Shown here: piece by piece, positions 3,293 to 29,386 of the stretch
Position numbering within the stretch: position 1 is the stretch's first letter
Layout of the letters: every line of letters starts with the position of its first letter
From: Patescibacteria group bacterium UBA2211
Lineage (GTDB): Bacteria > Patescibacteriota > Minisyncoccia > Minisyncoccales > Minisyncoccaceae
Direction: 5' to 3'
NCBI GenBank assembly: GCA_002327845.1
Contig: DCUP01000006.1
Location: 70,015-134,014 of the forward strand
Length of the DNA: 64,000 nucleotides
Translations under genes and position numbers: made by a program
Notes under the pieces: generated by a model
Seen by the model: only the letters and a program-made list of their open reading frames with translations
The model's database searches: none
Told to the model about the DNA's origin: nothing

Positions 3293-6200
3293 TCAAATCT
3301 TCCTGTGAGCGCAAATATCTTTAAAATCACAATATTGGCAATGCCATCCGGGTGTAGGCTTAAAATTACTCCTTTTAATTTTCTCTAATAATCCTCTAAT
3401 TTCTGTTTCTGTATTTTCAATATCTCCTTCTTTAATGTTAAAAGAACAAGTTGTTCCATCGTCAAGATAGTAATAGGTTAATTTAAGAGGATTTAATCCT
3501 AAAACCTTTTTTGCTGCCACAGCATAAATCATAAGTTGAAGTTTTTCTTCTTTGGCTAACGTCTTTTTAGGTGAACCTGTTTTGTAATCTATAATTTCTA
3601 CTCCATCACCCAATTTATCTATCCTATCTATAGTACCTATAAAAACATCCCCATTTAACTTTAAATTAAAATTCTTTTCTAATGCTGGTTCTTCATTAAT
3701 AAAAAGAATCTCTGGTTTATTTTTAATAAAATCTTCGTAAAAAAGCTTTAGGCTTTGTTTTCCTTTTTCATAAAATTCTTTTTTAATTATTGAAGATTCA
3801 TACCAATCACTAATCCATTCTTTTTCATAAATTTTTAATAAATCTTCGAAACTCAATACTCCCGAACTAGCATTTTTACCAAAAAGAGATTTCTGTTCAA
3901 CTGAAGAAAATTTTAATGATTCCAAAACAAAACTATGCAATGTCTGATGAATACTTTTTCCAAAACTAAACACTGATTTTCCTCTTATCGGTATTTTAAA
4001 TATACTTCCAAACTTGTACCCCAAAGGACACTTTCTAAAAGATTCTAATTGAGAATAAGAAAAATGATCAGGAAGAAATATTTTTAAATCTCGCCCAGAA
4101 CCATTTGTTTCATTCGATTCTAATTTAAATCCCATCGAACGTTTAATACAAAAACCAGAACTTCTTGTAAATTTCTGCTTATTTAATACTTCTTCAGTTA
4201 TTAATCCTGATTCGATTAAAAACCTTGAAGGTTTCTTTAAATCTTTGCCTCCATAATCAGCAGCCCAAGTTAAAAATATTCCCCTTTTAGCCCTCGTTAA
4301 AGCAACATAAAACAATCTTCTTTCTTCTTGCATATGAAAATCTCCTTCTGGTAGAACTTCTTTAATTAAAGCTTCAGGAATTTCTATTGGATTCTTTTTC
4401 TGATCAGAAGGGAACTTTCTTGAAACTAAATTAGTTAAAAAAACATATTTAAATTCAAGGCCTTTTGAAGAGTGAATGGTCATAACTCTAACCGCTTCAA
4501 AGCTCGAATCGATACTATTTCTTATAGAACCCTCTTCTCCAGCATCTAATTCCATTTGTAGGTTTTCCATAAAAGAAAGAATAGTTGGATCAGCTTGTGA
4601 ATTTTCAAAGTTTTTAATCTTCTCAAAAAATTGATCAATCATCTCCCACTTTTTCAAACTCTCTTCATTGCTTTCTGGAATATACTTTCCATATTCTAAA
4701 TCATTAATAATATGAATAAAAACTTCGCTAGCATTCCTTTCTTTTGATAGTTTGTAATGCTTCTTTAGCCTTTCAACAATCTTTCTTAATTTAACAACCG
4801 TATCCGAAGTAAATTTACTTAAAAGATGACTATCTGTTATGGCTTCGAATATTGGAATTCCTTTTTTGTCGCTGTATTGAATAATTCTCGAAACTTCTTC
4901 GGGAGAAAAATCCATCATCCTTAATATTCTATAGAAATTAGGAGAATCATAAAAATTAAGAATAACCTTAAGATAAGAAATCAAATCAAGTATTAAAGGA
5001 TTAGTATATAAACCTTTTGAAGAAACGAATTGATAAGGAATACCAGCCCGCTCTAATGCTCGACTAAAATTATTAGCCGATTCATTGGTTCTAGTTAAAA
5101 TAGCAAAATCAGAAAACTCTGCTTTATTATCAATTTCTTTCAATTCCCAAATCTTATTAACAACTCCCGACACTTCATCATCAATTGTTTCAAAGCCAAG
5201 TAATTCTATAGCTCCTGATTTTACTTGGTTACTTTTTAGTTTTTTATCAACTTTCTTAAATGATTTTAAATCTATTCCCCTCTCTTCTGCTCTTTTATTA
5301 ATCCCCTCTATTTCATTTAACTGATACTCTAAACGATTAGGATTATTTAATTGTATAAATTGATATGATAAATCAAGAATATTTTGAGGCGATCTATAAT
5401 TTTCAACTAAAACGATTTCTTTTGATTTAGAATAGTCCTGTTTAAACCTCAACACATTATTAAATGAAGCTCCTTGAAAACCCATCACTGACTGATCATC
5501 ATCTCCAACCACTGTAATGTTATTTTCTGGATAAGCTATTTTTTGAATTAACTCATACTGAACCCAATTAGTATCTTGAAACTCATCAACCATTATATAT
5601 TTAAATTGATTTCTATATTTCTCTAAAATCTCTGGTCTTTTGTCGAACAATTTTAATGTATAATTTATTAAATCACCAAAATCTAAAACATTATTATCAA
5701 GTAAAAGTTTTTGATAAACATGATAAGCCTCAGCCACTTCTTTTATTCTCTCGTATTCTGACTGTTTATTAGTTAGGTCTTTTTTGTCTTTTGATTTAAC
5801 TGACTTAGATCCAACAGGAATATCATCTATATTTAATTTTAAAGAATCAGCATGCTCTAGATAATTCTCTGGATAAATGCCTTCATTCTTGCAATGACCA
5901 AAATGAGAAACTAGAGCTTCTATAAACTTAGTTGGATTTCCAAGAGGACGATATTCTTTTAAAAAATTAAACTTATCAAAATTCTTTTTAATTAAAATCC
6001 AGCTTCCAGTCTGTTCTAATAACTTGTAATTAGTCGGAATTCCAATACTTAATCCATATCTTTTTAGAATTCTATCGCAGAAAGAATGGAAAGTTGATAT
6101 CCAAAAATCGTAATATCCAAAAGGAAGTAATTTCTCGACCCTTTCCTCCATTTCTCTGGCAGCTTTTTCGGTAAAAGTAACAGCCAATATTTCTTCTGGC

Positions 6201-6397
6201 TTAATCCCCTTTTCTTTAATTAAATAAGCTATTCGATGAGTTAAAACAGTAGTTTTACCCGTTCCAGCGCCCGCAACAATCAAAAGAGGCCCCTTATCAA
6301 AGGTAACAGCCTCTTTCTGCTCTTTATTTAACTTAGTTAATAAATCAGACTCCATTAATACTCTTATACCACAAATTAGAAAAGCAAAAAAGGACAT
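3293..6397 (-). CDS. UvrD/PcrA-type SF1 helicase fused to a C-terminal Cas4/AddB-like PD-(D/E)xK Fe-S nuclease
   Basis: Helicase motifs GAGTGKT, VDEFQDTN and VMTIHSSKGLEF. C-terminal GTIDRID, IIDYKTG, QLMIYA, plus Cys cluster C...CQYCDFKDIC. True start may be Met15 (MESDLL, coordinate 6355). Confidence 0.85.
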   Translation of the reverse strand: MSFFAFLICGIRVLMESDLLTKLNKEQKEAVTFDKGPLLIVAGAGTGKTTVLTHRIAYLIKEKGIKPEEILAVTFTEKAAREMEERVEKLLPFGYYDFWISTFHSFCDRILKRYGLSIGIPTNYKLLEQTGSWILIKKNFDKFNFLKEYRPLGNPTKFIEALVSHFGHCKNEGIYPENYLEHADSLKLNIDDIPVGSKSVKSKDKKDLTNKQSEYERIKEVAEAYHVYQKLLLDNNVLDFGDLINYTLKLFDKRPEILEKYRNQFKYIMVDEFQDTNWVQYELIQKIAYPENNITVVGDDDQSVMGFQGASFNNVLRFKQDYSKSKEIVLVENYRSPQNILDLSYQFIQLNNPNRLEYQLNEIEGINKRAEERGIDLKSFKKVDKKLKSNQVKSGAIELLGFETIDDEVSGVVNKIWELKEIDNKAEFSDFAILTRTNESANNFSRALERAGIPYQFVSSKGLYTNPLILDLISYLKVILNFYDSPNFYRILRMMDFSPEEVSRIIQYSDKKGIPIFEAITDSHLLSKFTSDTVVKLRKIVERLKKHYKLSKERNASEVFIHIINDLEYGKYIPESNEESLKKWEMIDQFFEKIKNFENSQADPTILSFMENLQMELDAGEEGSIRNSIDSSFEAVRVMTIHSSKGLEFKYVFLTNLVSRKFPSDQKKNPIEIPEALIKEVLPEGDFHMQEERRLFYVALTRAKRGIFLTWAADYGGKDLKKPSRFLIESGLITEEVLNKQKFTRSSGFCIKRSMGFKLESNETNGSGRDLKIFLPDHFSYSQLESFRKCPLGYKFGSIFKIPIRGKSVFSFGKSIHQTLHSFVLESLKFSSVEQKSLFGKNASSGVLSFEDLLKIYEKEWISDWYESSIIKKEFYEKGKQSLKLFYEDFIKNKPEILFINEEPALEKNFNLKLNGDVFIGTIDRIDKLGDGVEIIDYKTGSPKKTLAKEEKLQLMIYAVAAKKVLGLNPLKLTYYYLDDGTTCSFNIKEGDIENTETEIRGLLEKIKRSNFKPTPGWHCQYCDFKDICAHRKI

Positions 6398-6435
6398 GCG
6401 TCCTCAGTTTGCAAAAAATTATTTACTTAATAATC

Positions 6436-6786
6436 TTACTTTTTATTGTTGTTTTTATTCTCATCAACTATCTTGTCATGCAACTCATCTAAACCATATG
6501 CTCCCAAAACTTTTCTGGCTTTATTTATCACCCTAGAACCAAAGATGCGAAATTCTTTAACAAAACCATTAATTTTTTGTTCTTCGGCAATATTTTTTAT
6601 TTCATTACCTTCTATCTTTGCGCCTACCGTACTCTCATTATTGTATATTTTCTTAAGAAAATCTTCTTTGTTCGGTTCTTTACTCTCTCTTATTACTTCG
6701 ATTTCACGATTATCGTCTTGTCCCTCTTTAGTTTGTTCTAAGTTAATAGTCTCTCCTATTTCTGTTTTTTCTATTTTTTCTTGCAT
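6436..6786 (-). CDS. Hypothetical protein (116 aa, E/K-rich)
   Basis: ORF tightly packed (1-nt gap) behind 6788..7096. No recognisable motif. Confidence 0.5.
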   Translation of the reverse strand: MQEKIEKTEIGETINLEQTKEGQDDNREIEVIRESKEPNKEDFLKKIYNNESTVGAKIEGNEIKNIAEEQKINGFVKEFRIFGSRVINKARKVLGAYGLDELHDKIVDENKNNNKK

Positions 6787-6787
6787 C

Positions 6788-7096
6788 TTATTTTTTACTT
6801 AAAAGTTCTTCTTGTAATAAAACAATCTGTTCAGATAATATTTTATCAAAATTAGGAATTTTCTCATCTAATATTTTAATAGTTTCTTCGGTATTTCCAG
6901 AAGTTAATCCAGCATTAATGTTTTTAATTTCTTCTTCGGGGAAGCCCTCCAACGCTTTCATAACACTTCTTCTTAAAACTATATCTGTCATTCTCTCTGC
7001 TATTTTTTCTTGAATTTCAAGGGGAGCTTGATCTACTCCAAGTTCTTTCATTATATCTATCTCTTTTCCTTTAATTATTATTTTATCTGAAGCCAT
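6788..7096 (-). CDS. Hypothetical small helical protein (102 aa)
   Basis: ORF in an operon-like array with the T4CP-like ATPase. No motif I can name with confidence. Confidence 0.5.
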   Translation of the reverse strand: MASDKIIIKGKEIDIMKELGVDQAPLEIQEKIAERMTDIVLRRSVMKALEGFPEEEIKNINAGLTSGNTEETIKILDEKIPNFDKILSEQIVLLQEELLSKK

Positions 7097-7128
7097 AATT
7101 TATTTACTATTTTAATTAATTATATAAA

Positions 7129-8631
7129 TTACTCTATCCAATCTAAATCTTTCTCTTTTGCTCCTTTATTAATTAATTCTTGAACTTTTGCATTTAATCC
7201 TCCCTCAACAGGAACATCCTTATAAGCATCTATTTGTTGATTTCCTTCTTCAGCTAGGTGATTTATCTTATCTTTTAATTCTGAATATATATAAGGTTTC
7301 GCTTTAAATATCTCGTGAAGTTTCTCAAATAAATCTTCGAAATTTTCAACCTGCTTAAACTCATCATCTTTTATTATTTTTTTCTTAGCTAATTCTTTAA
7401 ATAAGCCCTCAAAATCTTCAGCTTGATTAACAATTTGATCAAGTTCTTCCTCTTTTGTTATTTTTTTCTTAATTATTTCATTAAAAAGGTCTATTTCATT
7501 AATAGATTCTATTGGAGGAATAGAAGATTCTGATGTAGAAACTTCCTCTTGTTTCTCTTTTGTATCTTGTGGAATTCTAGATTCTGCATCTTCCAAATCT
7601 CTACATATTTTATGTATCAAAGCTCCTCCGCCACCAATACCAGTAATAGCGAAAGCCGTGTTACCAGCTGCTAATCCTAGAGCAGATGAATAATGAATAA
7701 AAGAATAACCAATTAGTACCTCTCCTAGTCCCATTCCTACAGCTCCAGCCGCTATTCCAGCAACAGGAAAAGCAATCATTCCTCCAGCAATGGCAATTTT
7801 GATAGCAAGCTTTACCCTTTCATCTTTTATTCCTGTAAGCTTTTCTATTAAATCTTTTTTTTCTTTACTTTGTCCTTCTTCGTTTTCTTTTAATATATCT
7901 TCTATATCGCTCAATTTTTTATTTATATTTTCAACAGAACCTTCGTCACTTTCTTTACCGCTTAAATATTCTTTAATGATCTGATCTTCTGTTTTTCCTG
8001 TAAGAGATTGAACATCTCTTAATGCTTCTTCATATTCCTCATAAACAGCCCTATATTCATTTGCTGCTACTGGTTCACCATCTTTAGCACCAAAAAAGGC
8101 TTTGAATTTATATGACAACTCTTTTTGTTTTTCTTTTTGAGCAAACATTTTGTTTTTGTTGTCAAACAAAGCTTTAAGATTTTCGATTGCTCTCTCTGTT
8201 CTAGCTTTCTTCTCTTCTCTAGCTTCTAATTCAGCTTTCTTTGTTTCTTCAGATTTTGTCTCCTCGGGAGTTTTTACTTCTTCTGGTTTCTTTACTTCTT
8301 CTGAAGTTTTCCCTTTCTCAGGAGTTTTTACTTCTTCTGTGTTGGATTGTTTTATTGGTAATTCTTCGTCTTCACCTACATATTTAGTATTAAGTATTTC
8401 CATTTTTGCAAGCTCTTCTTCAGCAATTTGAGCTCTGGTTTTTTCTGGTTGTTGTATTAATGGTTCTTCATCCAAATCTTCGCCCTTATTAGCTAAGTAC
8501 TGATCAAATTCAGGCTTATAATCTCCTTGTTGTTTTGTATTTTCTACTTTCATTTTTGCAAGCTCTTCTTCGGCAATTTGAGCTCTGGTTTTCTCTGGTT
8601 GTTCTTTTAATGGCTCTTTTGATTCATTCAT
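7129..8631 (-). CDS. Repeat-containing E/K-rich protein with central glycine-rich membrane segment
   Basis: Duplicated QPEKTRAQIAEEELAKM modules and EEVKTPE-type repeats. Hydrophobic Gly-zipper-like stretch AIAGGMIAFPVAGIAAGAVGMGLGEVLIGY...ITGIGGGGALI. Confidence 0.6.
   Translation of the reverse strand: MNESKEPLKEQPEKTRAQIAEEELAKMKVENTKQQGDYKPEFDQYLANKGEDLDEEPLIQQPEKTRAQIAEEELAKMEILNTKYVGEDEELPIKQSNTEEVKTPEKGKTSEEVKKPEEVKTPEETKSEETKKAELEAREEKKARTERAIENLKALFDNKNKMFAQKEKQKELSYKFKAFFGAKDGEPVAANEYRAVYEEYEEALRDVQSLTGKTEDQIIKEYLSGKESDEGSVENINKKLSDIEDILKENEEGQSKEKKDLIEKLTGIKDERVKLAIKIAIAGGMIAFPVAGIAAGAVGMGLGEVLIGYSFIHYSSALGLAAGNTAFAITGIGGGGALIHKICRDLEDAESRIPQDTKEKQEEVSTSESSIPPIESINEIDLFNEIIKKKITKEEELDQIVNQAEDFEGLFKELAKKKIIKDDEFKQVENFEDLFEKLHEIFKAKPYIYSELKDKINHLAEEGNQQIDAYKDVPVEGGLNAKVQELINKGAKEKDLDWIE
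8401..8603 (-). repeat. In-frame direct repeat (~53 bp, 150-bp period) inside 7129..8631
   Basis: 8401-8453 and 8551-8603 (catttttgcaagctcttcttc[a/g]gcaatttgagctctggtttt...) differ at 2 positions. Confidence 0.85.
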
Positions 8632-8646
8632 ATTATTTATTGTTTA

Positions 8647-11031
8647 TTAAATTCTTCTTTGTTTTATTTCCTGTTCTATAAAATCCTTACTTCTTCCGTA
8701 AGTTAAAGCATAATATTCTTTAATATCCTTGACTCTTTCAAAGTCTCCCCTAATTGGAGGATAGGTTTTTATATTGAAAGGTTTAGATATCTGTCCATCC
8801 ATCATCATTTTGACATAGAAATTAAAGTTGTCAATATTGATTAAATCTTGAGCATTAAAGATTGGAATGAACTCTTTTTCTAAAAATTGAGCGTCTTCAG
8901 CTCCAACTCTAAAGGAAATTATTGTTCCGATATTACCAAAAACGCTATCCCTAATTAAGTCAGGAAGTTGTCCAATAAATTGATGAGAAATAATTAATGA
9001 TAATCTGTATTTTCTTGCCTCAGATAATATTTGAGAAATGCTGTTTGTAGCAAAGTTTTGAAACTCATCAATATATAGATAAAAATCTTTTCTTTCACTC
9101 TCTTGAGTGTCAGCTCTAGAAAAAGCTGCCATCGCTAATTTACTAGTCATAATCAAACCAAGCAAAGAACTATTCATCTCTCCTAATTTTCCCTTACTTA
9201 GATTAACTAAGAATATTCTTCTATTGTCTAATATTTCTCTAAAATTAAATGAACTTTTGGTTTGTCCAATAATCGGACGCATATAATCATTGGAGATAAA
9301 AGTGTCAAACTTAGAAGTAATATATGGAACCATATTTTTTAATGCTGCTTCTCCTCCAGCCTGCTCAGCTTGCTTTTCCCAAAATTCTTTAACTAATACG
9401 TTTTTACATTTAGCTAATAATCTGTGTCTAAATCCTGCATCAGCCATAACCTTAGGAACCTCCATTAGAGTATATACTTCGTCAGGATCATCCATTAAAA
9501 GCATTAAAGCGTTCCTGGTGTATTGTTCAAACATCGGTCCTCCTGTTTGCTTTAAATCATACAACTTATCGAAAATATTAATCATCTCATTCACAATAAA
9601 GGTTTTTTGTTCGGGAAAACGCTTATCATATTCAAGCATATTTAAACCAACCGATCTCTCTAGATTGGTTGGATCAAACAAAACAACATCTCCTATCCTT
9701 TCATTGGGAATCTTACTCAAAATATCATCAACCAAATCTCCATGAGGATCTAATAATCCGATTCCTTCACCATTCTTAATGTCCTGCAAAGCCATATTAG
9801 ATAATAAAGCAGATTTACCAGTTCCGGTTTGACCAATAACATAAGTATGCCTTCTTCTATCGTCACTTTTCATTTTAATATCTTTCTTTTCTTCTCTATA
9901 TTCATTATATCCCAATAACAATCCTTCTCTCGGTAAGTTGGCGGGAGGAGTAGAGTTTTTCGCTTTTACTCCCTTGATACTAGGAGTTGAAGTTAGTGGA
10001 GTTGGAAAATGAAAAATACTAGTTAATTCTTCAGAATTTAAAATATTTCTTTGTGAGTGCTCAAACAATCTAAAACTGTATTGATAAATTAAATCAGAAG
10101 CACTTCTTCCCTTAAGCATCGTTAATCTAAAGTTATTTGTCTTTGGAGAATTAAATTGTTCAAAAGAATTGGACATTTGCATAAAGACTTCTTCACATCT
10201 CTTTTTGTCTTCTATTGAAACAACCAAACGAATATTTGCTTCAAAATTATCCTTGCTTATTTTTTCTTCAAGCATTTTCAAAAGAGTCTCATCAACTTTA
10301 GGTGAAGTCAATTTATTTTCTTCTTTTCCTTTGGCAGCACTCAAAAAACTAGTAGCTCCAATTGCTTGATTAAAATTCTTTCCTTGAGCAACCTCGTCAA
10401 TAATCATTTTCGCTCTAGTATACCAATCATTGTTACCCTTTTTTATAACAACCTGAATAGCTGCTTCTTCATTCTCATTAAGCTTCGTTAAAACATTAGT
10501 TATACTGGATAATGGATCTGTTTCAATATAATTATATGTTTTTATAGGAAGATAAAAGGGTTTCGTTGTCTTTAAATATCCGCAAGAAATATTTTCAGCT
10601 GGGGAAAATATATTATAATCATCTGTTTTTTCTATCTGAGCATTAGGATAGATACTATATATTTCTTTTTCTATGAAACCTTCAAATCTTTTAGGAGCAG
10701 CAACATAAAAAATTATCTGCTCTTTTATTTTTCCAATTTCTAACGCAATCCATGGATCTATTCCAAAAACTCCTTCCTTATTAAAAGAGGTTAAACTACT
10801 ATAAAAATCTTCCATTAATCTTATCCAATCTTTTTCTTGTTTACCTGCCTTCTGAGTTTCTTCAGTAGAATCTTTAGTCATCCTAACTGAAAATAAAACA
10901 AACTCTAAAGATTCTTTTAATGCTTTAGCTTTGTTTCTCTTATTAAACCAGAAAACAAAAACAAACAGTAAAACAATTAATACTGCAATGACGTAATAAT
11001 AAATATAAAAATTATTAATAAAATCAAACAT
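8647..11031 (-). CDS. Membrane-anchored TraG/VirD4/TraD-like (type IV coupling protein-like) P-loop ATPase
   Basis: N-terminal TM YYYVIAVLIVLLFVFVFWF. Walker A GQTGTGKS, Walker B-like FYLYIDEFQNF. RKYRLSLIISHQFIGQL resembles T4CP C-terminal motifs. Confidence 0.7.
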   Translation of the reverse strand: MFDFINNFYIYYYVIAVLIVLLFVFVFWFNKRNKAKALKESLEFVLFSVRMTKDSTEETQKAGKQEKDWIRLMEDFYSSLTSFNKEGVFGIDPWIALEIGKIKEQIIFYVAAPKRFEGFIEKEIYSIYPNAQIEKTDDYNIFSPAENISCGYLKTTKPFYLPIKTYNYIETDPLSSITNVLTKLNENEEAAIQVVIKKGNNDWYTRAKMIIDEVAQGKNFNQAIGATSFLSAAKGKEENKLTSPKVDETLLKMLEEKISKDNFEANIRLVVSIEDKKRCEEVFMQMSNSFEQFNSPKTNNFRLTMLKGRSASDLIYQYSFRLFEHSQRNILNSEELTSIFHFPTPLTSTPSIKGVKAKNSTPPANLPREGLLLGYNEYREEKKDIKMKSDDRRRHTYVIGQTGTGKSALLSNMALQDIKNGEGIGLLDPHGDLVDDILSKIPNERIGDVVLFDPTNLERSVGLNMLEYDKRFPEQKTFIVNEMINIFDKLYDLKQTGGPMFEQYTRNALMLLMDDPDEVYTLMEVPKVMADAGFRHRLLAKCKNVLVKEFWEKQAEQAGGEAALKNMVPYITSKFDTFISNDYMRPIIGQTKSSFNFREILDNRRIFLVNLSKGKLGEMNSSLLGLIMTSKLAMAAFSRADTQESERKDFYLYIDEFQNFATNSISQILSEARKYRLSLIISHQFIGQLPDLIRDSVFGNIGTIISFRVGAEDAQFLEKEFIPIFNAQDLINIDNFNFYVKMMMDGQISKPFNIKTYPPIRGDFERVKDIKEYYALTYGRSKDFIEQEIKQRRI

Positions 11032-11079
11032 TTTCTTTTGAATCTATTATATAATGAATAAAATAAAAAAGGAAGCTAA

Positions 11080-11781
11080 TTATGCCTCTTTTTTCATATA
11101 TTTTTCTCTTTCTTTTAAATTAAACTTCTCAATCGAATATCTTAACATTGTTCTTGGCATCACTTTATAATATTTTTCTAAAAATTTAATCTCTACATCC
11201 TTATCTCTCTTGCCCAACTCTCTCAACATCCAACCAACTGCCTTGTGTATCAAATCGTGCTTATCTTTTAAAAGAATTTCTGAAATCTTTAAAACGTCTT
11301 CGTATTCTTTATTTCTTAAAAGAGTAAAAGTAGATAAAATAGAAATTCTTCTCTCCCATAAATCTTTTGATTTAACTAAAGAATATAATACTTTTCTTTC
11401 TTTTTTGTTTTCTAAAAGAAAACCGCCAATAATATGAGGAGCGGTTAAATCTACTAAATCCCAATTATTAATATTTTTAGTATTTTTTAAATAAAAATCG
11501 TAAATTTCTTTTTTGTTTTCTGCTCTCTTATTTCTTTCAACTAAGATTAATAATCCAGTAAGCCTATGCTCATGAACTTTGCTATTTAATAATTCCTGAA
11601 TATCTATTAGGGAGGCCTCTTTAAATTTATTAACTATTTCTCTTATAACTGGAACCTTAATTCCCCAAAAAATATCTCCTTCTCCATATTGCCCTTTTCC
11701 GGTTTTAAAAAATCTAGACAATCCCTTTGCTTGTTCAATGTTCTTTTTAGATTTCAACTCTTTAAGTATTTTATCAATCAT
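11080..11781 (-). CDS. DNA alkylation repair protein (AlkD-like HEAT-repeat family)
   Basis: RFFKTGKGQYGEGDIFWGIKVP and WDLVD motifs typical of this family. Confidence 0.75.
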   Translation of the reverse strand: MIDKILKELKSKKNIEQAKGLSRFFKTGKGQYGEGDIFWGIKVPVIREIVNKFKEASLIDIQELLNSKVHEHRLTGLLILVERNKRAENKKEIYDFYLKNTKNINNWDLVDLTAPHIIGGFLLENKKERKVLYSLVKSKDLWERRISILSTFTLLRNKEYEDVLKISEILLKDKHDLIHKAVGWMLRELGKRDKDVEIKFLEKYYKVMPRTMLRYSIEKFNLKEREKYMKKEA

Positions 11782-15779: not shown

Positions 15780-16115
15780 TTAGCTGATCTTGGAACCGGG
15801 GATTATTTCTTTTTCCGGAACCAAAACCGATAAATTATTATTGTCTTTTACTGCGAGAACCATTCCTTGACTCTCAAGTCCCATTAACATTCTTGGTTCA
15901 AGATTGATTATAGCAATGACTGTCTTATTAATCAATTCCTCGGGCGTATATACTTTACCAATTCCCGCTAAAATCTGTCTTTTTTCTTCTCCCAAATCAA
16001 CTTGCAACTTTAAAAGCTTGTCTGAGTTTTCGACTCTTTCTGCTTCAAGTATTTTTCCTGTCCTTAAATCAATTTTATCAAAATCTTCAAAATTAATTAC
16101 GCTTTTGCTTTCCAT
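15780..16115 (-). CDS. tRNA-binding domain protein (CsaA/Trbp111-like)
   Basis: DFDKIDLRTGKILEAERVENSDKLLKLQVDLGEE...ESQGMVLA, typical EMAP/tRNA-binding OB fold. Confidence 0.85.
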   Translation of the reverse strand: MESKSVINFEDFDKIDLRTGKILEAERVENSDKLLKLQVDLGEEKRQILAGIGKVYTPEELINKTVIAIINLEPRMLMGLESQGMVLAVKDNNNLSVLVPEKEIIPGSKIS

Positions 16116-16480
16116 AGTCCGTGTATATTACAATATGTTCTTACTGAAACCTCTCCCGAAATGTTAAATTCAGCAGAAGGATTATCTCCTGGCTTTAAAA
16201 ATACCTTACAATTATTTGCTTCTATCCATTCAATATAATGATCATCTTCCATCGGATGAAGAACTTCTCCAACTTTAACTAAAATACTGTTTTCTTTTCT
16301 CTCAATCACAGGAACATGCTTCTCTTTTCCCTCGTCAGTTTCTTTTTCTATTTGTTGTTCCATTGGTTGTCCGCAACACACAAGTTGCCCCATACCCGTA
16401 TGAGTTACTTCAACAATATTTCCACAAATATTACATTTATATATTTCTTTTTGTTTTGTCATATAAAAATATTTTAACAC
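16097..16480 (-). CDS. dfx: Desulfoferrodoxin (2Fe superoxide reductase)
   Basis: Desulforedoxin CNICGNIVEV...VCCGQPM plus SOR centre motifs KHVPVI, HPMEDDHYIEW, CNIHGLW. Likely start at Met7 (16462). Confidence 0.9.
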   Translation of the reverse strand: MLKYFYMTKQKEIYKCNICGNIVEVTHTGMGQLVCCGQPMEQQIEKETDEGKEKHVPVIERKENSILVKVGEVLHPMEDDHYIEWIEANNCKVFLKPGDNPSAEFNISGEVSVRTYCNIHGLWKAKA

Positions 16481-22159: not shown

Positions 22160-23974
22160 TTACTCGTCTTCCAAAGAAAATACTATTAGTCCTTTTTCTT
22201 TTATCAATTCCTCTTGTCCAAAATCGTTTAATTTAAAGTTTAAAACATAACCAACTTTTCTTTCAATTTTTCTTCCTGTATATTTGCTTGCATCAGGATC
22301 CCACTCTTCTAAAATAATAATGTCTCCTTCTTTTACTTCGAACTCAGCAACCCTAAGTTCGAAATTCTTCTTTTTTGAATTAACTAAATCAAAATATTCA
22401 GGAGGAATTTTTCTCTTAATTATATTTGGATTTGAATTAGGATTATGATTTAGTGGTGTTTCTTTATTTTTTTTCTTGTTAATAAAAAGTGATTTTGACC
22501 AGTAATATATAACAAGAATAATTAAACCAACAATAATAGCAATAAGTAAAATAATGATAGCGATAACACTTATTGTCCATTGCCCTATATTAAAATTCAG
22601 TGGTTGATTAGTGATAATAATCGTTTTTTCTATTGACTTAATTCTTGCGCCCTCATCATTGACCACCTCAACTGATACTTTATAGCTACCACCTCTTAAC
22701 TCTTCATTAATGGTGAAAGTAAAGTTTCCATCTTTATCGCTTTGAGTGATAAGCGCTTGAGCATCTTCCCCCTCTCTCTGAAGCCATAAAACAACCTTAG
22801 AATCAGAATATGTCGTTCCTTTTATATCAAAAACTTCTCCACTTTTCGCTTTTTCAGGACATTCAGTTATTTTTGGCGTATCTAAAGGATTAATAGTAAA
22901 TTCTACAGAATTGGCTGACATATTTCCAGCCTTATCAACAGCTTTAGCAATTAAAAGATATTTGCCATAACTTAATATTGGAGTTTCATAAATGCCGCTT
23001 CCAGTATCTTGCCAGTCTTGCATTCTTTCTTCATTTATTTGAATTTCATAATGATCAATACCAGAAGTTTCATCTTCGGAAACAAAACTAAATCTAACTC
23101 TAGGATTAGTTAAGTTATCTCTTTTGACTTCTTGGATATCAAAACTATTTGGTTTTTTAGTATCAACTTGAAAACGGAAATGAGAAACCTCTCCCCAGCC
23201 ATTAATATTGCGGAACTGAAGATGAAGATACCAAATTCCATCTTCTATATTATTTAATTCTTTTGAATTAATTAAAGTTGTAGAAATCATTGTCGGAATC
23301 GATTTTGCTATTTTATTAACAAGGATACGAACCCCAGTAATACTTGGAGACAAAGACCAATTAAATTTTGCGGTACTTGCGTTGTACCACCTACTACTAT
23401 CAGGATGAGTTGAAGAAGATATTATCGGTGCAACAGGAACACCTGGAGTTTCTGGCTCTTCTATTGTTATTGCTTTCGCTTCACCCAATGTAAACGTTGC
23501 AGTCCCTAAATTTGAAAGAATATTTGTTCCTTGGCCATCATTCGCAAGAACAGAACTAGAAGAAAAAGAAACAGGAGCTGAGCCAGTAGATTTAACCTTA
23601 AAATTAACTGTTAATATCTTTCCAGACGAACCAGTGAAACCAGACAACGCAATGCCCTCAAAATTAACTGTTCCAGTACTATTAGAAAAAGATGGCTCTT
23701 GGGCCCATAAAGTAAAAATTGATCCCGCCTTAGAAATAGAAACAACCTCAAGTTTATCTTGAGGGAATGATATAGTTCCTGAAGCAGCATTCATTGCTTG
23801 ATCAGAACTAGAGACATAGACATTAACTGGAATAGAACCACCAACAGTATAGGAACCTGAAGCTGGATAAAAAACCAAACTTGCAGCTTGTATAGACGTC
23901 GGCAAAAAACCCAAAAAGGTAAATAATAAAATAACAAAAAATTTTAAAAATATTATTTTTTGTATTTTTTCCAT
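22160..23974 (-). CDS. Cohesin-domain surface protein with Ig/FN3-like repeats, TM anchor and cytoplasmic ASCH/DUF3850-like tail
   Basis: Signal peptide and cohesin-like N-domain (LVFYPASGSYTVGGSIPVNVYV...NAASGTISFPQDKLEVVSI...VLANDGQGTNIL). STHPD...WY module. TM WTISVIAIIILLIAIIVGLIILVIYYW. Tail IPPEYFDLV...FELRV...GDIIILEEWD...YTGRKIERKVGYV. Confidence 0.7.
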   Translation of the reverse strand: MEKIQKIIFLKFFVILLFTFLGFLPTSIQAASLVFYPASGSYTVGGSIPVNVYVSSSDQAMNAASGTISFPQDKLEVVSISKAGSIFTLWAQEPSFSNSTGTVNFEGIALSGFTGSSGKILTVNFKVKSTGSAPVSFSSSSVLANDGQGTNILSNLGTATFTLGEAKAITIEEPETPGVPVAPIISSSTHPDSSRWYNASTAKFNWSLSPSITGVRILVNKIAKSIPTMISTTLINSKELNNIEDGIWYLHLQFRNINGWGEVSHFRFQVDTKKPNSFDIQEVKRDNLTNPRVRFSFVSEDETSGIDHYEIQINEERMQDWQDTGSGIYETPILSYGKYLLIAKAVDKAGNMSANSVEFTINPLDTPKITECPEKAKSGEVFDIKGTTYSDSKVVLWLQREGEDAQALITQSDKDGNFTFTINEELRGGSYKVSVEVVNDEGARIKSIEKTIIITNQPLNFNIGQWTISVIAIIILLIAIIVGLIILVIYYWSKSLFINKKKNKETPLNHNPNSNPNIIKRKIPPEYFDLVNSKKKNFELRVAEFEVKEGDIIILEEWDPDASKYTGRKIERKVGYVLNFKLNDFGQEELIKEKGLIVFSLEDE

Positions 23975-24819
23975 AAAAATTTATAAGTTAGGAATATTAA
24001 AATTATTCCTATCGTTATAATAACATAAAACAAATAATTTTTGTATAGTGTGTTAAGCCTAACTACTCTTTCGTTGCCATTATTGTCTACTGCTTTAACT
24101 AAAATTTCTTCATTTGGATTTTGATTTTGCAAAAGATAAGGACTTTCTGCTCTAACACAAGTTCTTCTTTCTTCGCATACTTCATAATAATTAATTCCCG
24201 AACCCTTATCTTGAGTAGCGAACACTAAAAAGTATTTTCCATTAAAAATTGTTGGATCTTTTGTTATTGTTACATTAAATTCTTCTGGTACATCAATATC
24301 TTTCTTTTCAATTGTCTTTAATTGTGAAGCTGGTGCGTACTGAGAAACAACAAATTGAAAATCAGAAATTGTCGTCTTCGTTTCTGTCCCTTTACCGTCA
24401 TTAAGTAATGCTTTCGTGTTCGTAATTTTAATAGAACCAGCTCCTTCTTGTATCGATTCAAAAATAACTGAAAATATCAAACCTCTTTTATCAAAATAAC
24501 CACCAGGAATTATTCCTGAGAATAAAATATTATTACTTCCTATTTTTGGTCGTTCATTCCAAAAATTAATAATAGAATTTCCATCTCTTATTTCTTTCAG
24601 TTTAAGAAGTTTTTCTGGAAAAATAATATTTCCTTCGATAGCATTAATGTCTTCTTCTTCAGTATTAATAAATAGATTGACTTCAAATTCATCTCCCATT
24701 TTAATTTGCGGACTTTCAACTTCAAAAAAAACTTCTGCCGCAAAAACTGAAGATATAGGGACCAGAAATACGGCTATAAGAATAATTATTTTAAATTTTA
24801 TAATTTGTTGTGTGTTCAT
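23953..24819 (-). CDS. Cohesin-domain protein with C-terminal TM anchor
   Basis: Signal peptide. Cohesin-like FFEVESPQIKMGDEFEVNLFI...INAIEGNIIFPEKLLKLKEI...ALLNDGKGTE. C-terminal LFYVIITIGIILIFLTY. Confidence 0.7.
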   Translation of the reverse strand: MNTQQIIKFKIIILIAVFLVPISSVFAAEVFFEVESPQIKMGDEFEVNLFINTEEEDINAIEGNIIFPEKLLKLKEIRDGNSIINFWNERPKIGSNNILFSGIIPGGYFDKRGLIFSVIFESIQEGAGSIKITNTKALLNDGKGTETKTTISDFQFVVSQYAPASQLKTIEKKDIDVPEEFNVTITKDPTIFNGKYFLVFATQDKGSGINYYEVCEERRTCVRAESPYLLQNQNPNEEILVKAVDNNGNERVVRLNTLYKNYLFYVIITIGIILIFLTYKFLWKKYKK

Positions 24820-24822
24820 ATA

Positions 24823-26328
24823 TCATCCTGTCCAATAATAAGCCATAATACTAAAATCAACTAAATCGACTTTGCCATCATTATTTAAATCAATGTTTGC
24901 TGGCGGTGATGCTTTTTTATACCAATAAGCAGCAATAGAAAAATCGACAAGATTTATCTTCTTATCATTATTTACGTCACCCCTTGAAACAACTTGGGTT
25001 ATTGGATTATAAACATTCTTTGTTCCAACCACAAAAGATACAACTTTACTAAAAGAACTTATATTACCATTAAGCGCTACTTTTGATCTTGTAGAATGAT
25101 CTCCCATCTCAAGGAGTGCTGTATCAAAATTGTATAAATAGACACCGTTTTTATCGGATTGTATTTTGCTAAAAATTTCTTCATCGGAATTAACTGAAAT
25201 TGTTATTTCACTGTTAGGGGTACTTTGTCCAAAAATTTGAATATCATCTCCCCTCTTTACTTCTTTTTTATCAACTGCAATTGTGGGAGCTATAAAAATA
25301 CCTCCGACACTAGTAGTTGCTCCTGAAGTTACGCTTATCGGAAAAGTTAAAAGAGAAGAACGAACACCTTTGCTGTCTTCCGAATATACGCTGAAAATAT
25401 AATTACCACCAGCAAGACCGCTTAAAGTTAAAGAAAAATTAGCATTAGCGTCAGTAATAGTAGTTGCTGCAACTTGAGCGTCTTTTAATAAAGTAATAGT
25501 ACTCTTAGGATAAGCTCGTCCAGAAAAAATAGCACTGGTAACGGGGGGAATATAGACTCCTCCGCCTCCGCCTCCTCCACCACCACCGCCACTAGGACAA
25601 CTTCCACAGTCAGCAGAACAAGTACTACAAGTTTCTGAACCATTGCAAGTACTATCACCACAAGAAGGAGGACAAATTCCACAATCAGTAGAACAAGTAC
25701 TACAAGTTTCTGAACCATTGCAAGTACTATCACCACAAGAAATAAGAGCATCGCCCAAAATAGCAAAATAGCTAAAATTTGAACTAGTTGCTGTAATTTT
25801 GTTTAAATTTTCATCTACAACGCTATCGGTTAAAAGGCTCCAAGCTGAACCATTCCAACGATAAACACCTAGAGTACTTTCGTTTATTCCACTAATGTCA
25901 GAATTTTCATAAGAAAAATCTAATGTAATATCCTTATCAAAAACGTGAACAGGAGTTTCATCGCTTGTTTTTTTGAAAGATATATTATAAAAAACCTCAG
26001 CTCCTAATTTTCCAATTGGTAATTGTTTACTATCTATAACAGATGCTTTGGGAATAGAATGAATAGTAGTTTCTACTTCGTCCCCCGAAGTTAAAACATA
26101 GTCTGGAGTATTAATTTCAAGACTTGAATTATTGGGATTAGTTATTGTTACTATTGATGGTATAGTCGTGTCTATATTCTCAATTTTTTCAGCATAATAA
26201 ATTTGAATTTGAAAATTAGCACTTGATCCTGCCGATACTAATTGTGGAATAAAATTAAAAATGCAAAACAAAAAAACAGATAAAAGAATAAAAAAACTGA
26301 TTTTCAATTTTGTGCTCTTGTTTTGCAT
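24823..26328 (-). CDS. Secreted protein with Cys-rich tandem modules, poly-Gly linker, Ig-like region and C-terminal dockerin
   Basis: Signal peptide. 2x CGDSTCNGSETCSTCS[TA]DCG[IS]CP. G11 run. Dockerin duplicated Ca-loop DVNNDKKINLVDF / DLNNDGKVDLVDF (24826-24987). Confidence 0.75.
   Translation of the reverse strand: MQNKSTKLKISFFILLSVFLFCIFNFIPQLVSAGSSANFQIQIYYAEKIENIDTTIPSIVTITNPNNSSLEINTPDYVLTSGDEVETTIHSIPKASVIDSKQLPIGKLGAEVFYNISFKKTSDETPVHVFDKDITLDFSYENSDISGINESTLGVYRWNGSAWSLLTDSVVDENLNKITATSSNFSYFAILGDALISCGDSTCNGSETCSTCSTDCGICPPSCGDSTCNGSETCSTCSADCGSCPSGGGGGGGGGGGVYIPPVTSAIFSGRAYPKSTITLLKDAQVAATTITDANANFSLTLSGLAGGNYIFSVYSEDSKGVRSSLLTFPISVTSGATTSVGGIFIAPTIAVDKKEVKRGDDIQIFGQSTPNSEITISVNSDEEIFSKIQSDKNGVYLYNFDTALLEMGDHSTRSKVALNGNISSFSKVVSFVVGTKNVYNPITQVVSRGDVNNDKKINLVDFSIAAYWYKKASPPANIDLNNDGKVDLVDFSIMAYYWTG
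25602..25740 (-). repeat. Tandem 75-bp in-frame repeat (2 copies) encoding the Cys-rich module
   Basis: 25602-25665 versus 25677-25740 differ at 2 positions. A 50-bp core is identical. Confidence 0.9.
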
Positions 26329-26336
26329 TTTAATTT

Positions 26337-28253
26337 TTAATTTGCAGTTATGGTCAATACCATATTAATATCATAATCACTTGCCACTGGTTGTTCTGTG
26401 GGAATTTTTTGACTAATAGAAACACCTTGAAGCGTCCAATCTCCAATATCATCAGAAGCTGAGGTTGCACTAAGTAACGTAATAGAATTAACGGGTGTTC
26501 CAGCTACTTCATCGAAAGCAGCTGACGATCCCTTACTAACACCAGTCAAGGTACACGATCCACATTGTCCTATTGCTAAAGTAGCAACAGAAGGATCAAT
26601 TGTCATTTGTCCACCTACAGCATCAGCGTCTGTAGCATGATCAGTACATCCTGTACCTGTTCCCGGATCATTAAAATCATAATCTGTACCAGCACTGTCC
26701 CAAACATTTGTTGTTGCTTGTGCTGCTACAGTTAAAGTCCAACCATTATCAGCAGCATCATTATTATTAACATAAATCTGTTGCGAAGCCGTACCAAAAC
26801 TCCCCGTAATTGTTTGACAAGAAAAAGAAAAAGTCGCACTACTCATGGCCATTGTTGGACTAGAAACAGTAACATAACTAGCATCAACAATATCAGCAGA
26901 TAAAGAACCACAAGATCCTGTCGCTTGGTCAGAAGTTGCAGCAGAATAAGGACCTTCTCCTGAAGCATTAGTCGAACGAACCTGATAACGATAAATAGTA
27001 CCGCCACAAGTTAATCCAGAATCATCATAATAAGCATTTGTTACTCCTGAAGCAATTTCAGAAAAATTTGTACAACCAGTTCCAGAACAACGCTCTACTC
27101 TATAACTAGTCGCTCCGCCAGTTGGAGCAGTCCAATTAAGTCTTAAGCTTGTTCCTTGAACGTTAGTAAAATTAAGAGAAGTCGGTGCCCCTGGACGAGT
27201 TAAAATACTTGCTTCAGCTGATAATGGAGATTCTTCGCTTGCAGTATCATAATCAGTAACTGAATAATAATATGTTGTATTTCCTGTTGTTGAACTATCA
27301 GTATAAGAATTAGTAGTAGAGTTTGCTAAAAATGTTGAAACTGGAGAAGCACCATCTCTATAAACCTTGTAAGGGGTTGTTGCATGAAGTCCATTTGCTC
27401 CAGTTCCAGCCGTACTAGTTGTCCAATTAAGTTGCGCATTTGTTGTTCCTGCTGGCGCAGAAGCACTAAGTCCAGTCGGAGCAAAATTAACAACGATATT
27501 ATCAACAGCAATACTAGTTCCAGCAGCGGAAGAATTTCTCACATTAAAATTAACACGAATAGTATAATTAGTACCACCAGTCAAAGAAACATCACTACTA
27601 AAACTAGTTGTTGTCCATGAAGTACTGGCGGTCATAAGAGCACAACCAAGATTAGCTATACGTGTTGTATTACCAGAATCCCAAATTTCAAGAGAAACCA
27701 TGCCAGTACCCCAGCCTGTACCAGTACCATAATAACTAAATTTTCCTTTTGCTTTTACTGTTCCACTACCAGGAGCAGTAACTGTTTGATAAATCATTCC
27801 TCTATAATTTTTATTTTTTGTTGCTGGAGTACCTGCTGCAAAAGCTGTTTGTCCTCCCATACTACTACTATATATAAAAGTTAAAAAAGTGTATTCAGTA
27901 GCATCAGTACCATTACACGCAGTTGATGATCCGCTTGAAGTACCATCTGTAGATGTCCAACCAGTAGAATTACCATTAAAATTCCAATTATTTGTTTTAT
28001 TTAAAGCAAACACTTCTTCCGTTTCAAAGGGAACTCTAGGATTTTGCCAAATTGGAGGCCAACCAGAAAATAACCAACTAAAAATTAAAGTAAAAACTAC
28101 AAGTTTTATAAAAATCTTTTTAGAGAAAAATTGTTTAGAAAATTTTACTTCTTTAAAAATATTCCGCCAGAAATTTGCAAAAATATCTATCCCTTCATAC
28201 GTTTTTTTATTCTGTTGGTGGGACTTTAATTTTTTGTCTTGTTTTAAGAGCAT
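26337..28253 (-). CDS. Large surface protein: TM anchor, CBM/jelly-roll-like region, two FN3 domains, C-terminal WxL-like domain
   Basis: FN3 signatures (LNWT...YKVYRDG; LRLNWTAP...YRVERC...YRYQVRSTN). IAVDNIVVNF end of a jelly-roll-like module. The last ~190 aa are paralogous to 29387..30094. T/S/G/A-rich. The start overlaps the upstream gene by 47 nt, so it is uncertain. Confidence 0.65.
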   Translation of the reverse strand: MLLKQDKKLKSHQQNKKTYEGIDIFANFWRNIFKEVKFSKQFFSKKIFIKLVVFTLIFSWLFSGWPPIWQNPRVPFETEEVFALNKTNNWNFNGNSTGWTSTDGTSSGSSTACNGTDATEYTFLTFIYSSSMGGQTAFAAGTPATKNKNYRGMIYQTVTAPGSGTVKAKGKFSYYGTGTGWGTGMVSLEIWDSGNTTRIANLGCALMTASTSWTTTSFSSDVSLTGGTNYTIRVNFNVRNSSAAGTSIAVDNIVVNFAPTGLSASAPAGTTNAQLNWTTSTAGTGANGLHATTPYKVYRDGASPVSTFLANSTTNSYTDSSTTGNTTYYYSVTDYDTASEESPLSAEASILTRPGAPTSLNFTNVQGTSLRLNWTAPTGGATSYRVERCSGTGCTNFSEIASGVTNAYYDDSGLTCGGTIYRYQVRSTNASGEGPYSAATSDQATGSCGSLSADIVDASYVTVSSPTMAMSSATFSFSCQTITGSFGTASQQIYVNNNDAADNGWTLTVAAQATTNVWDSAGTDYDFNDPGTGTGCTDHATDADAVGGQMTIDPSVATLAIGQCGSCTLTGVSKGSSAAFDEVAGTPVNSITLLSATSASDDIGDWTLQGVSISQKIPTEQPVASDYDINMVLTITAN

Positions 28254-29361: not shown

Positions 29362-29386
29362 AAATTTTTTATTAAATTTTAGATAC

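Follow-up and report, generated by a model that had tools for sequence, protein, structure and literature searches.

The 794-aa protein encoded at positions 8647..11031 of the window, the whole 64-kb stretch of Patescibacteria DNA that was analysed, is a membrane-anchored ATPase of the coupling-protein type (VirD4/TraD/TrwB-like) and of the monoderm class, with a DUF8128 domain between its anchor and its motor. We found that three neighbouring genes are its real partners, in an order permuted with respect to most lineages, and that the helicase-nuclease encoded beside them is not co-conserved and is a chance neighbour, an unrelated housekeeping repair gene. Also new here are a predicted fold of DUF8128 that is like the N-terminal part of VirB4, and the occurrence of the DUF8128+ATPase architecture on Bacillus plasmids, in the position of the coupling protein, and in Bacillales phages.

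Architecture of the ATPase

All features described here lie on the minus strand. In accordance with the N-terminal TM helix reported in the earlier note, residues 4-33 (10933..11022) are hydrophobic in a hydropathy scan, and one helix, unbroken over residues 8-42, is seen in the AF2 model (pLDDT 86). This is the single N-terminal TM of the protein; many homologues have two. The remainder of the ATPase would be cytoplasmic, judging from the KRNKAK stretch that comes after the helix and the positive-inside rule.

The nucleotide-binding domain (NBD) is T4CP-like and covers residues ~371-760 (8752..9921), on the evidence of motifs, alignment with TrwB, Foldseek and hhalign. It contains the Walker A motif GQTGTGKS (residues 400-407, 9811-9834) and the Walker B motif FYLYIDEF (9061-9084). 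Its inserted all-alpha domain appears in the predicted model as a helical insertion at residues ~470-603 (9223-9624). The GQTGTGKS, YLYIDEFQNF and LIISHQFIGQL motifs listed previously are all there, and their columns are invariant over 54 homologues (G400, G403, G405, K406, D655 and E656). HMM searches also bear out the T4CP-like assignment: Pfam TrwB_AAD_bind (26.8 bits, cutoff 20.5) and T4SS-DNA_transf (26.5 bits, cutoff 20.1) score over their cutoffs, whereas DUF87 stays sub-threshold (22.1 bits vs cutoff 23.2) and FtsK_SpoIIIE gives no Pfam match. The best NCBIfam matches are all TraD/VirD4-type, at scores that fall far short of the equivalog cutoffs (TraD / VirD4-like CD1115; 45.8 vs 366, 40.2 vs 250 and 31.3 vs 647 bits).

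By sequence, the top match in the PDB is TrwB (E 3e-6), with the Walker A, DE and RK...HQ motifs aligned, and hhalign assigned a probability of 79.8% (E 1.5e-5) to F TraD and of 8.7%, over the NBD alone, to F TraC. Foldseek matched the predicted model to TrwB, VirB4, HerA (a weaker relative), DotL and Cag-beta, and ~420 of the 417-427 residues of TrwB-deltaN70 (NBD + AAD) were aligned at a TMt of 0.59-0.64. The window ATPase has in common with TrwB (R388), TraD (F) and VirD4 an N-terminal membrane anchor, a GxTGxGKS Walker A, an hhhhDE Walker B and the inserted all-alpha domain; its oligomeric state is presumably hexameric. Unlike these proteins, it carries the ~330-aa DUF8128 between TM helix and NBD, has one predicted TM instead of two, and is without relaxase or T4SS linkage.

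The region between anchor and motor, earlier described as a ~350-aa unassigned domain, is present but now has a Pfam name, DUF8128 (PF26449). We place it at residues 43-368 (9928..10905) on the basis of precomputed PF26449 annotation (residues ~40-370 of the window protein, and essentially all homologues listed) and a domain-only AF2 model (pLDDT 82.5, pTM 0.83). All 14 PDB matches of this model at E<=1e-3 are TrwK/VirB4 chains, with a best E of 2.4e-6 and a borderline TMq of 0.44-0.50, the aligned target region not being displayed; the full-length model is collinear with VirB4 over ~880 columns in Foldseek. The predicted fold of DUF8128 is similar to that of the VirB4 N-terminal domain, which docks to the membrane complex, at a TM of ~0.5, and the layout of an N-terminal domain followed by a C-terminal ATPase may be common to the window protein and VirB4 (TrwK, R388). 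The ATPase differs from VirB4 in its sequence matches, its NBD being nearer to T4CPs: VirB4-type models (CagE_TrbE_VirB, AAA_10, TIGR VirB4) gave no Pfam/NCBIfam match at E<=0.01, hhalign against F TraC revealed no sequence-level homology of DUF8128 with the VirB4 N-terminal domain, and TrwK, though in the PDB, is missing among the profile matches. The DUF8128 model also matched gp156 of phage G (TMq 0.70, E 1e-19), and the domain profile recovered 2,535 clusters (50% identity) with E<=1e-10. Literature searches on DUF8128 and DUF5663 turned up no papers.

Partner genes and the adjacent helicase-nuclease

In the window, the ATPase gene is followed by genes for a 500-aa E/K-rich repeat protein (7129..8631), a 102-aa DUF5663 protein (6788..7096) and a 116-aa small partner of the p116 family (6436..6786), with gaps of 15, 32 and 1 nt, and then by the helicase-nuclease (3293-6397; Pfam UvrD-helicase + UvrD_C + PDDEXK_1). 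When re-derived, the five ORFs, their motifs and their gaps all agreed with the earlier description. A terminator-like hairpin (GAGGAC-GCAT-GTCCTT + T-run, 6390..6405) lies directly after the p116 gene, and another (11072..11088), with a TATAAT-like box after it, lies in the 48-nt gap 5' of the ATPase gene; support for the latter is weak, with 5 such sites found across the 9-kb region vs 3.0 +/- 2.1 expected. The hairpins at 11088-11072 and 6405-6390 bracket the four-gene unit and leave the helicase-nuclease outside. The gap between p116 and the helicase gene is 38 nt from ATG 6397 or 80 nt from Met15 (6355); Met15 is the most likely start, because the first hairpin overlaps ATG 6397, and the NCBI gene call in locus L001 likewise starts the helicase from Met15 (1020 aa). 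The ATPase, the 500-aa protein, DUF5663 and p116 probably form a single operon in the window.

Comparison of 79 loci upheld the conservation of the ATPase with its three following genes but not that of the proposed five-gene neighbourhood. The partners lie mostly upstream elsewhere: the order in most lineages is [Gly-zipper protein]-[DUF5663]-[p116-like]-[ATPase], and in 61 of 73 loci the gene immediately upstream of the ATPase encodes a small partner, at a median gap of 4 nt where this is of the c8 family and 33 nt where it is of the p116 family. The helicase-nuclease is adjacent to the ATPase in three loci only (L005-L007), whose ATPases are the three closest relatives (64-89% identical), and the 76 others have none within +/-10 kb; its membership in the module was ruled out by this neighbourhood analysis. 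The remaining flanking genes are assorted housekeeping genes.

The p116 family was recovered by iterated HMM searches in 43-49 loci, in 45 directly upstream of the ATPase. The members of the family have an acidic, low-complexity N-terminal half, which from its composition is probably disordered. Their C-terminal segment is conserved and bears the motif A-x-K-V-A...Y-x-L-D-x-F/L-H-D, of which LDELHD is the version in the window protein. No Pfam model matches p116, and a word-based database search found 6 close relatives only, because p116 evolves fast. In ABY1 lineages its position is taken by the c8 family (~160 aa). Homology of p116 and c8 was considered and dropped at an hhalign probability of 0.1%, and we therefore treat the two as non-homologous positional analogues.

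The 102-aa protein matches PF18908 (DUF5663) at 27.9 bits vs a cutoff of 23.7 (residues 15-97, profile 1-83 of 84). DUF5663 was found near the ATPase in 23/73 loci, directly upstream of a p116-family gene in 15, and the DUF5663-p116 pair stays together whichever gene order is found. In the 500-aa protein, the repeats and the Gly-zipper membrane segment claimed previously are both present: the gene has direct repeats, two of 97 nt with a spacing of 150 nt and further units of 18 nt, and the protein has a central Gly/Ala-rich membrane segment at residues ~273-340. It has no Pfam, NCBIfam or PADLOC match, and phmmer and iterated HMM searches with the Gly-zipper segment returned its closest relative and no further homologues. 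Large E/K-rich proteins with a central Gly/Ala-rich segment occur in about 16-20 of the 79 loci, as picked by a composition rule that is descriptive and does not imply homology; they were found next to the ATPase only, in 16 loci each within 6 genes of it and on the same strand.

Relatives in Patescibacteria, plasmids and phages

The ATPase family comprises >5,000 clusters from at least 593 GTDB species, and NCBI names its members 'type IV secretion system DNA-binding domain-containing protein'. Patescibacteria have been known to carry orphan T4CP homologues since 2025, when the parts of the study by Quinonero-Coronel et al. (2025, Microb Genom; PMC12102498) that deal with them counted 5,713 VirD4-type homologues in 2,918 genomes, only 148 of them near virB4. 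These homologues, ~two per genome, are chromosomal and almost always far from virB4, the T4SS of the phylum is FATA-related and without relaxase, and the same parts of the paper leave the function of the homologues open and exaptation possible. The window ATPase and these orphans are almost certainly the same proteins, as far as those sections describe them; the paper's passages on T4CP and VirD4 do not mention DUF8128, a VirB4-like fold, small partners or plasmid and phage homologues.

The orphan state of the ATPase noted previously is evident in the window, in that neither T4SS nor relaxase linkage was seen over its 64 kb and precomputed Pfam annotation (window 1 to ~62.6 kb) contains no VirB4, VirB6, relaxase, pilin or integrase. 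Among the 79 loci, no VirB4-like gene was found within +/-10 kb of the ATPase by phmmer with F TraC/TraD queries, a search that is weak at such divergence. VirB4 is carried by 7/7 of the loci's genomes that appear in the part of Table S1 of PMC12102498 compared here, a co-occurrence that is not discriminating because VirB4 is very common in the phylum.

The closest relatives outside Patescibacteria are on plasmids and phages. On Bacillus plasmids (for example NZ_CP154917.1 and NZ_OX419581.1, where the ATPase is annotated DUF87) the gene order is DUF8128-ATPase, Replic_Relax (relaxase-like), TcpC, TcpE and AAA_10 (VirB4-type), so that the ATPase gene heads a Tcp-type conjugation locus. The plasmid proteins match the DUF8128 HMM (E 1e-22 to 1e-29) as well as the full-length profile (E 1e-59 to 1e-63), and tblastn aligned them with residues 94-759/773 of the window ATPase at 24-25% identity. 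The ATPases of these Tcp-type plasmids have the two-domain architecture in common with the window protein; the genes differ in their neighbours, the plasmid gene adjoining Replic_Relax, TcpC, TcpE and AAA_10 and the window gene having p116, DUF5663 and the Gly-zipper protein instead. To our knowledge, the Bacillus plasmid systems themselves have not been experimentally characterised. The earlier statement that this is not a canonical conjugation locus thus holds for the window, but homologues on conjugation-type Bacillus plasmids hold the coupling-protein position, and the connection to T4SS is therefore stronger than had been assumed. Full-length DUF8128+ATPase homologues also occur in Bacillales phages; among IMG/VR viral contigs there was one match only, an NBD-only relative. 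None of p116, DUF5663 and the Gly-zipper protein was found in the plasmid or phage loci.

Possible roles of the module

Our best explanation, to which we would give an even chance, is that the ATPase serves the chromosomal T4SS of Patescibacteria, which has no relaxase, as a coupling ATPase that has been relocated and is equipped with its own adaptors. Its gene would have parted from the chromosomal T4SS while the protein still recruits substrates to that system and energises it, docking at the membrane by means of its TM helix together with the VirB4-like domain. It may form a complex with the neighbouring small partner, p116 here and the ~160-aa family in ABY1, and DUF5663 and the large Gly-zipper protein may serve as adaptors, regulators or a membrane scaffold in many lineages. 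Cag-beta (VirD4) with CagZ and DotL with its adaptors, complexes to which the NBD also has structural matches, are T4CPs working with small dedicated partners and could by analogy be a model for p116/c8. Against this coupling role stand the lack of any T4SS gene in the 64-kb window, the lack of a recognisable coupling protein in the Se T4SS (Wang 2023) and, in the sections of PMC12102498 on S. epibionticum ML1, a t4cp homologue (which may not be of the DUF8128 type) that is non-essential where T4SS genes are essential.

The same ML1 mutant, with the same caveat as to its type, also speaks for the main rival, in which the DUF8128-ATPase and its three partners, the Gly-zipper protein included, would make up an autonomous membrane machine that takes up or exports DNA, or moves proteins, with no need of a VirB4-type T4SS, the two small proteins being subunits, chaperones or even substrates in a layout that recalls, by analogy, T7SS EssC and its ~100-aa helical proteins. 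The module is conserved as a unit apart from T4SS genes and has its own membrane protein and TM anchor, and the full-length homologues in Bacillales phages function without a T4SS, which indicates that the architecture can work outside one. However, no channel-forming component is recognisable, the plasmid homologues sit in the classic T4CP position, and the Gly-zipper protein and DUF5663 are patchy at the frequencies given above, so that the universal core comes down to the ATPase and one small soluble protein, unable to span the envelope; we regard such independence as unlikely, though worth serious consideration. In a bolder form, which we hold slightly more doubtful still, these proteins would be a self-contained and hitherto unrecognised machine for translocation across the envelope of Patescibacteria. 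It would represent a third branch of the T4SS ATPase family, intermediate between VirB4 and VirD4 and operating with no VirB-type channel. If true, it could for example acquire DNA or nucleotides from the host cell, and its relatives would have been co-opted by Bacillales phages.

An FtsK-like housekeeping role, in which the protein would be anchored in the membrane and pump DNA to segregate chromosomes or to clear the septum, is improbable. The ATPase belongs to the FtsK/HerA/VirD4 superfamily and is encoded by a core chromosomal gene, often near ftsQ, dnaX and cell-envelope glycosyltransferases; these flanking genes vary between lineages and therefore look like lineage synteny. The protein has neither an FtsK_SpoIIIE Pfam match nor a gamma domain, its closest relatives outside the phylum are on plasmids and phages, and a genuine ftsK is present in at least one phylum member, the Saccharibacterium TM7x. 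Least probable by far is a DNA-processing or defence module of the ATPase and the UvrD/PD-(D/E)XK helicase-nuclease, HerA-NurA-like or MADS/Gabija-like, a reading that is now largely refuted. In the window the two genes are neighbours and share a strand, HerA-NurA is among the Foldseek matches of the ATPase, PADLOC mad8 matches its NBD (E 6.7e-18; HerA models match it weakly) and the helicase matches PADLOC GajB models. Yet the mad8/HerA and GajB matches reflect generic P-loop and UvrD likeness, no GajA, methyltransferase or other MADS genes lie nearby, and the remaining four proteins have no system-specific PADLOC match. Moreover, the helicase-nuclease accompanies the ATPase in three of the 79 loci only, a terminator-like hairpin separates it from p116, and the ATPase gene is a near-universal, single-copy-like core gene and not a patchy island gene. 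A false lead is thereby removed, as there is no conserved link between the ATPase and the helicase-nuclease.

In the one member of the phylum studied that is genetically tractable (Se, ML1), the T4SS is essential and has no recognised coupling protein, according to Wang 2023 and the relevant sections of PMC12102498. A near-universal coupling-type ATPase with conserved partners offers handles on what this system transports, the partner proteins being candidate adaptors or substrates. Taken together, the predicted fold of DUF8128 and its occurrence on monoderm plasmids, on archaeal plasmids and in Bacillales phages point to a widespread class of coupling proteins that may keep a VirB4-type docking domain, and such a class would bear on the divergence of VirB4 and VirD4.

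Gene order and partner genes of the ATPase

The window has a G+C content of about 30%, and its minus strand holds nearly all of its genes, including the five studied here. We found these five ORFs, with their positions and spacing, exactly as the earlier note had described them: a 794-aa protein that combines a DUF8128 domain with an ATPase resembling type IV coupling proteins (T4CPs) (8647-11031), the 500-aa protein p500 (7129-8631), a 102-aa DUF5663 protein (6788-7096), the 116-aa protein p116 (6436-6786), and a helicase-nuclease with UvrD-helicase, UvrD_C and PDDEXK_1 matches (3293-6397). The intergenic gaps from the ATPase to the helicase-nuclease gene are 15, 32, 1 and 38 nt, the last being 80 nt with the alternative helicase start. 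The description of p500 as a repeat protein with a membrane segment was borne out by DNA repeats in its gene and by a Gly/Ala-rich membrane segment. A hairpin scan, which is weak at five sites against 3.0 ± 2.1 expected, placed terminator-like hairpins on the minus strand in the gap ahead of the ATPase gene (11088-11072) and directly 3' of the p116 gene (6405-6390). Since the latter overlaps the ATG at 6397, the helicase-nuclease probably starts at Met15 (6355), which is also where the 1020-aa protein called by NCBI begins. The hairpin positions are compatible with a four-gene operon that leaves out the helicase-nuclease.

To assess the conservation of this neighbourhood, we called, clustered and profiled the ORFs of 80 loci, taken from different species and extended by 10 kb on either side. 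The helicase-nuclease, which had been taken for part of the gene cluster, adjoins the ATPase in no loci but those of the three closest relatives (L005-L007), and the other 76 lack it; its adjacency is a lineage-specific coincidence. The rest of the proposed neighbourhood recurs, usually upstream of the ATPase. Upstream sequence was sufficient in 73 loci, of which 65 carry a small partner within 4 kb (p116 family in 49, the ~160-aa c8 family in 16). In 61 loci this gene immediately precedes the ATPase; the gap has a median of 33 nt for p116 and of 4 nt for c8, and some of the genes overlap. What defines the p116 family is a conserved pair of C-terminal helices containing an LDxF/LHD motif, which reads LDELHD in the window protein. 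DUF5663 is found in 23 of the 73 loci, directly ahead of p116 in 15, and this in either gene order. Large E/K-rich proteins like p500, with a central Gly/Ala-zipper membrane segment, were found in 16 loci, all on the same strand as the ATPase, at most six genes from it and nowhere else in the 20-kb loci; sequence homology among them was not detectable by phmmer or iterated HMM searches. Otherwise the ATPase is flanked by housekeeping genes of various kinds (dnaX, ftsQ, GT39 and GtrA-like proteins, serS). The ATPase, p500, DUF5663 protein and p116 thus form a genuine conserved module.

In ABY1-type loci (for example L041, L043, L050, L053, L059, L064, L071, L075 and L083), c8 holds the slot directly upstream of the ATPase, and a ~230-aa family, c15, often follows it. 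Homology between c8 and p116 was not detected by hhalign; either non-homologous partner replacement or divergence beyond recognition would account for the two families. One clade (L058 5626-9390; also L033, L038 and L056) has one or more pilin-like genes immediately ahead of the p116-ATPase pair; L058 has three in tandem, and the representative scanned from it carries a prepilin N-methylation motif and a Laminin_G_3 lectin domain. This arrangement hints that the module in that clade may be linked to type IV pili.

The 62 kb around the module hold ordinary housekeeping genes according to precomputed Pfam matches, and VirB4, VirB6, relaxase, pilin and integrase genes are all missing from that annotation, as the earlier note had also stated for the window. 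Elsewhere in the window, a minus-strand run of large predicted surface proteins (22160-30094; 604, 288, 501, 638, 384 and 235 aa) has cohesin, dockerin, fn3, Big, LysM and WxL-type domains and, judged by these, encodes a putative cohesin-dockerin-like cell-surface assembly in a Patescibacterium. Redox genes of this otherwise minimal genome include an [FeFe]-hydrogenase-like large subunit and an accompanying NADH-dehydrogenase 51K-type subunit (41330-44036) and a desulfoferrodoxin-type superoxide reductase (16097-16480).

The motor domain and the DUF8128 domain

The C-terminal half of the ATPase appears, weakly but consistently, to belong among the T4CPs. In the Pfam search suggested earlier, TrwB_AAD_bind and T4SS-DNA_transf scored just over their cutoffs, and TraG-D_C and DUF87 just under. 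The top NCBIfam matches are all of TraD/VirD4 type, yet far under equivalog thresholds. With a profile of 11 homologues, TrwB is the best solved relative; the Walker A, DE Walker B and RK...HQ motifs align. The catalytic motifs are intact, and the motifs quoted in the earlier note are indeed present and lie within invariant alignment columns. The hhalign probability is 79.8% for F TraD versus 8.7% for the VirB4 homologue F TraC. An AlphaFold2 model built from a 54-sequence alignment is confident (pLDDT 86), and in a Foldseek search its C-terminal half matches nearly the whole of TrwB-deltaN70, including the inserted all-alpha domain (TMt ~0.63). According to a hydropathy scan and the model, residues 1-40 form a single TM helix, after which comes a basic stretch. 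In any library, the best-scoring sequence-model match of the nucleotide-binding domain (NBD, residues 389-716) is PADLOC mad8 (E 6.7e-18), which beats every T4CP Pfam model.

The formerly unassigned ~350-aa domain is Pfam DUF8128 (PF26449); neither DUF8128 nor DUF5663 was found by name in any paper of the literature searched. When the domain was modelled alone (pLDDT 82.5, pTM 0.83), all PDB matches at E<=1e-3 were TrwK/VirB4 chains of R388 (best E 2.4e-6, TMq 0.44-0.50). The full-length model is collinear with VirB4 over ~880 columns and reaches a better E-value there than against TrwB; the VirB4 residues that are aligned are not displayed in either comparison. Because of these two matches, the ATPase is predicted to have a VirB4-like layout, a docking-type N-domain and then a motor, although the motor itself appears nearer in sequence to VirD4. 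An hhalign comparison of DUF8128 with the F TraC N-domain gave no sequence-level signal.

Relatives on plasmids and in phages

The ATPase family comprises more than 5,000 clusters at 90% identity; at least 593 representatives of GTDB species, spanning Paceibacteria and ABY1 lineages, carry a member. Used by itself, the DUF8128 profile matches 2,535 clusters (50% identity) at E<=1e-10; among the best 150 of these, the domain begins mostly 40-90 and at most ~180 residues from the N-terminus, truncated proteins excepted, and full-length proteins have ~800-860 aa. The DUF8128 plus ATPase architecture also occurs outside Patescibacteria. By tblastn, homologues lie on 356 plasmids, from Bacillus, Streptomyces, Staphylococcus, Clostridium, haloarchaea and Sulfolobus. 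On Bacillus plasmids the gene order is DUF8128-ATPase, Replic_Relax protein, TcpC, TcpE and AAA_10 (VirB4-type) ATPase, as in the Tcp-type conjugation operon look-alikes of two Bacillus subtilis plasmids (L091 8836-18685; L092 3558-14333); the homologue, first in a conjugation-type operon, is in the coupling-protein position. MOB-suite typed 288 of the 356 plasmids, including these two, as non-mobilizable; as the Tcp-type operon is seemingly full, mobility may be under-called.

Full-length homologues were also found by tblastn in 56 phage records, nearly all of Bacillales phages, and a viral-protein structure search with the N-domain gave strong matches, including Bacillus phage G gp156 (E 1e-19, TMq 0.70). 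In Geobacillus phage TP-84 (gp48; L089 6821-9085) and phage D6E (gp23; L090 6890-9148), the gene sits between the lysis and the lysogeny or early regions. Scored with the DUF8128 HMM, these plasmid and phage proteins reach E-values between 1e-16 and 1e-29; the N-domain is therefore common to them at the sequence level. None of the partner families turned up in the loci from plasmids and phages. Phage G gp155/gp156 are likewise DUF8128 plus T4CP-like ATPase entries; phages have no T4SS. On an IMG/VR viral contig (L087), whose long ORFs overlap on both strands, stand-alone proteins of 405 aa (4823-6040) and 431 aa (7907-9202), without DUF8128, strongly match the family NBD only (E 1e-71 and 3e-54).

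Possible roles of the module

In the literature searched, T4CPs in Patescibacteria are treated only by Quinonero-Coronel et al. 2025 (PMC12102498) and Wang et al. 2023. The former count 5,713 VirD4-type homologues across 2,918 genomes of Patescibacteria, with virB4 near just 148 of these homologues, and describe a chromosomal T4SS that is FATA-related and mostly without a relaxase; they note that in S. epibionticum ML1 the t4cp homologue is non-essential although the T4SS genes are essential, and therefore regard exaptation as possible. Wang et al. report no recognisable coupling protein in the S. epibionticum T4SS, and a 2025 review restates these points. All seven genomes of our loci listed in Table S1 of PMC12102498 are VirB4-positive, VirB4 being too common in the phylum to discriminate. 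Orphan T4CP homologues are already known, and this ATPase family was flagged in 2025; the novelty lies in the partner-gene module, the VirB4-like predicted DUF8128 fold and the tie to a plasmid/phage coupling-protein class. The T4CP passages of the two papers mention neither partner genes nor phage or plasmid relatives.

It is possible, but rather unlikely, that the module is an autonomous translocase: it is detached from T4SS genes, homologues occur in phages and the ML1 homologue is non-essential, whereas the universal core is just the ATPase and one small soluble protein. An FtsK-like role in division seems improbable given the real ftsK in TM7x and the plasmid and phage relatives. The DNA-processing or defence module with the helicase-nuclease, as the earlier note had speculated, is scarcely credible, since the gene neighbourhoods contradict it; the mad8, HerA and GajB matches in PADLOC reflect generic P-loop/UvrD similarity, and no other system genes are present.

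We hold with middling confidence that the ATPase is a coupling-type motor for the chromosomal relaxase-less T4SS encoded elsewhere in the genome. Presumably a hexamer, it would be held at the membrane by its own TM helix, use its VirB4-like DUF8128 domain to dock to a membrane complex and bind a small dedicated partner, and in many lineages it may also bind the DUF5663 protein and the Gly-zipper membrane protein.
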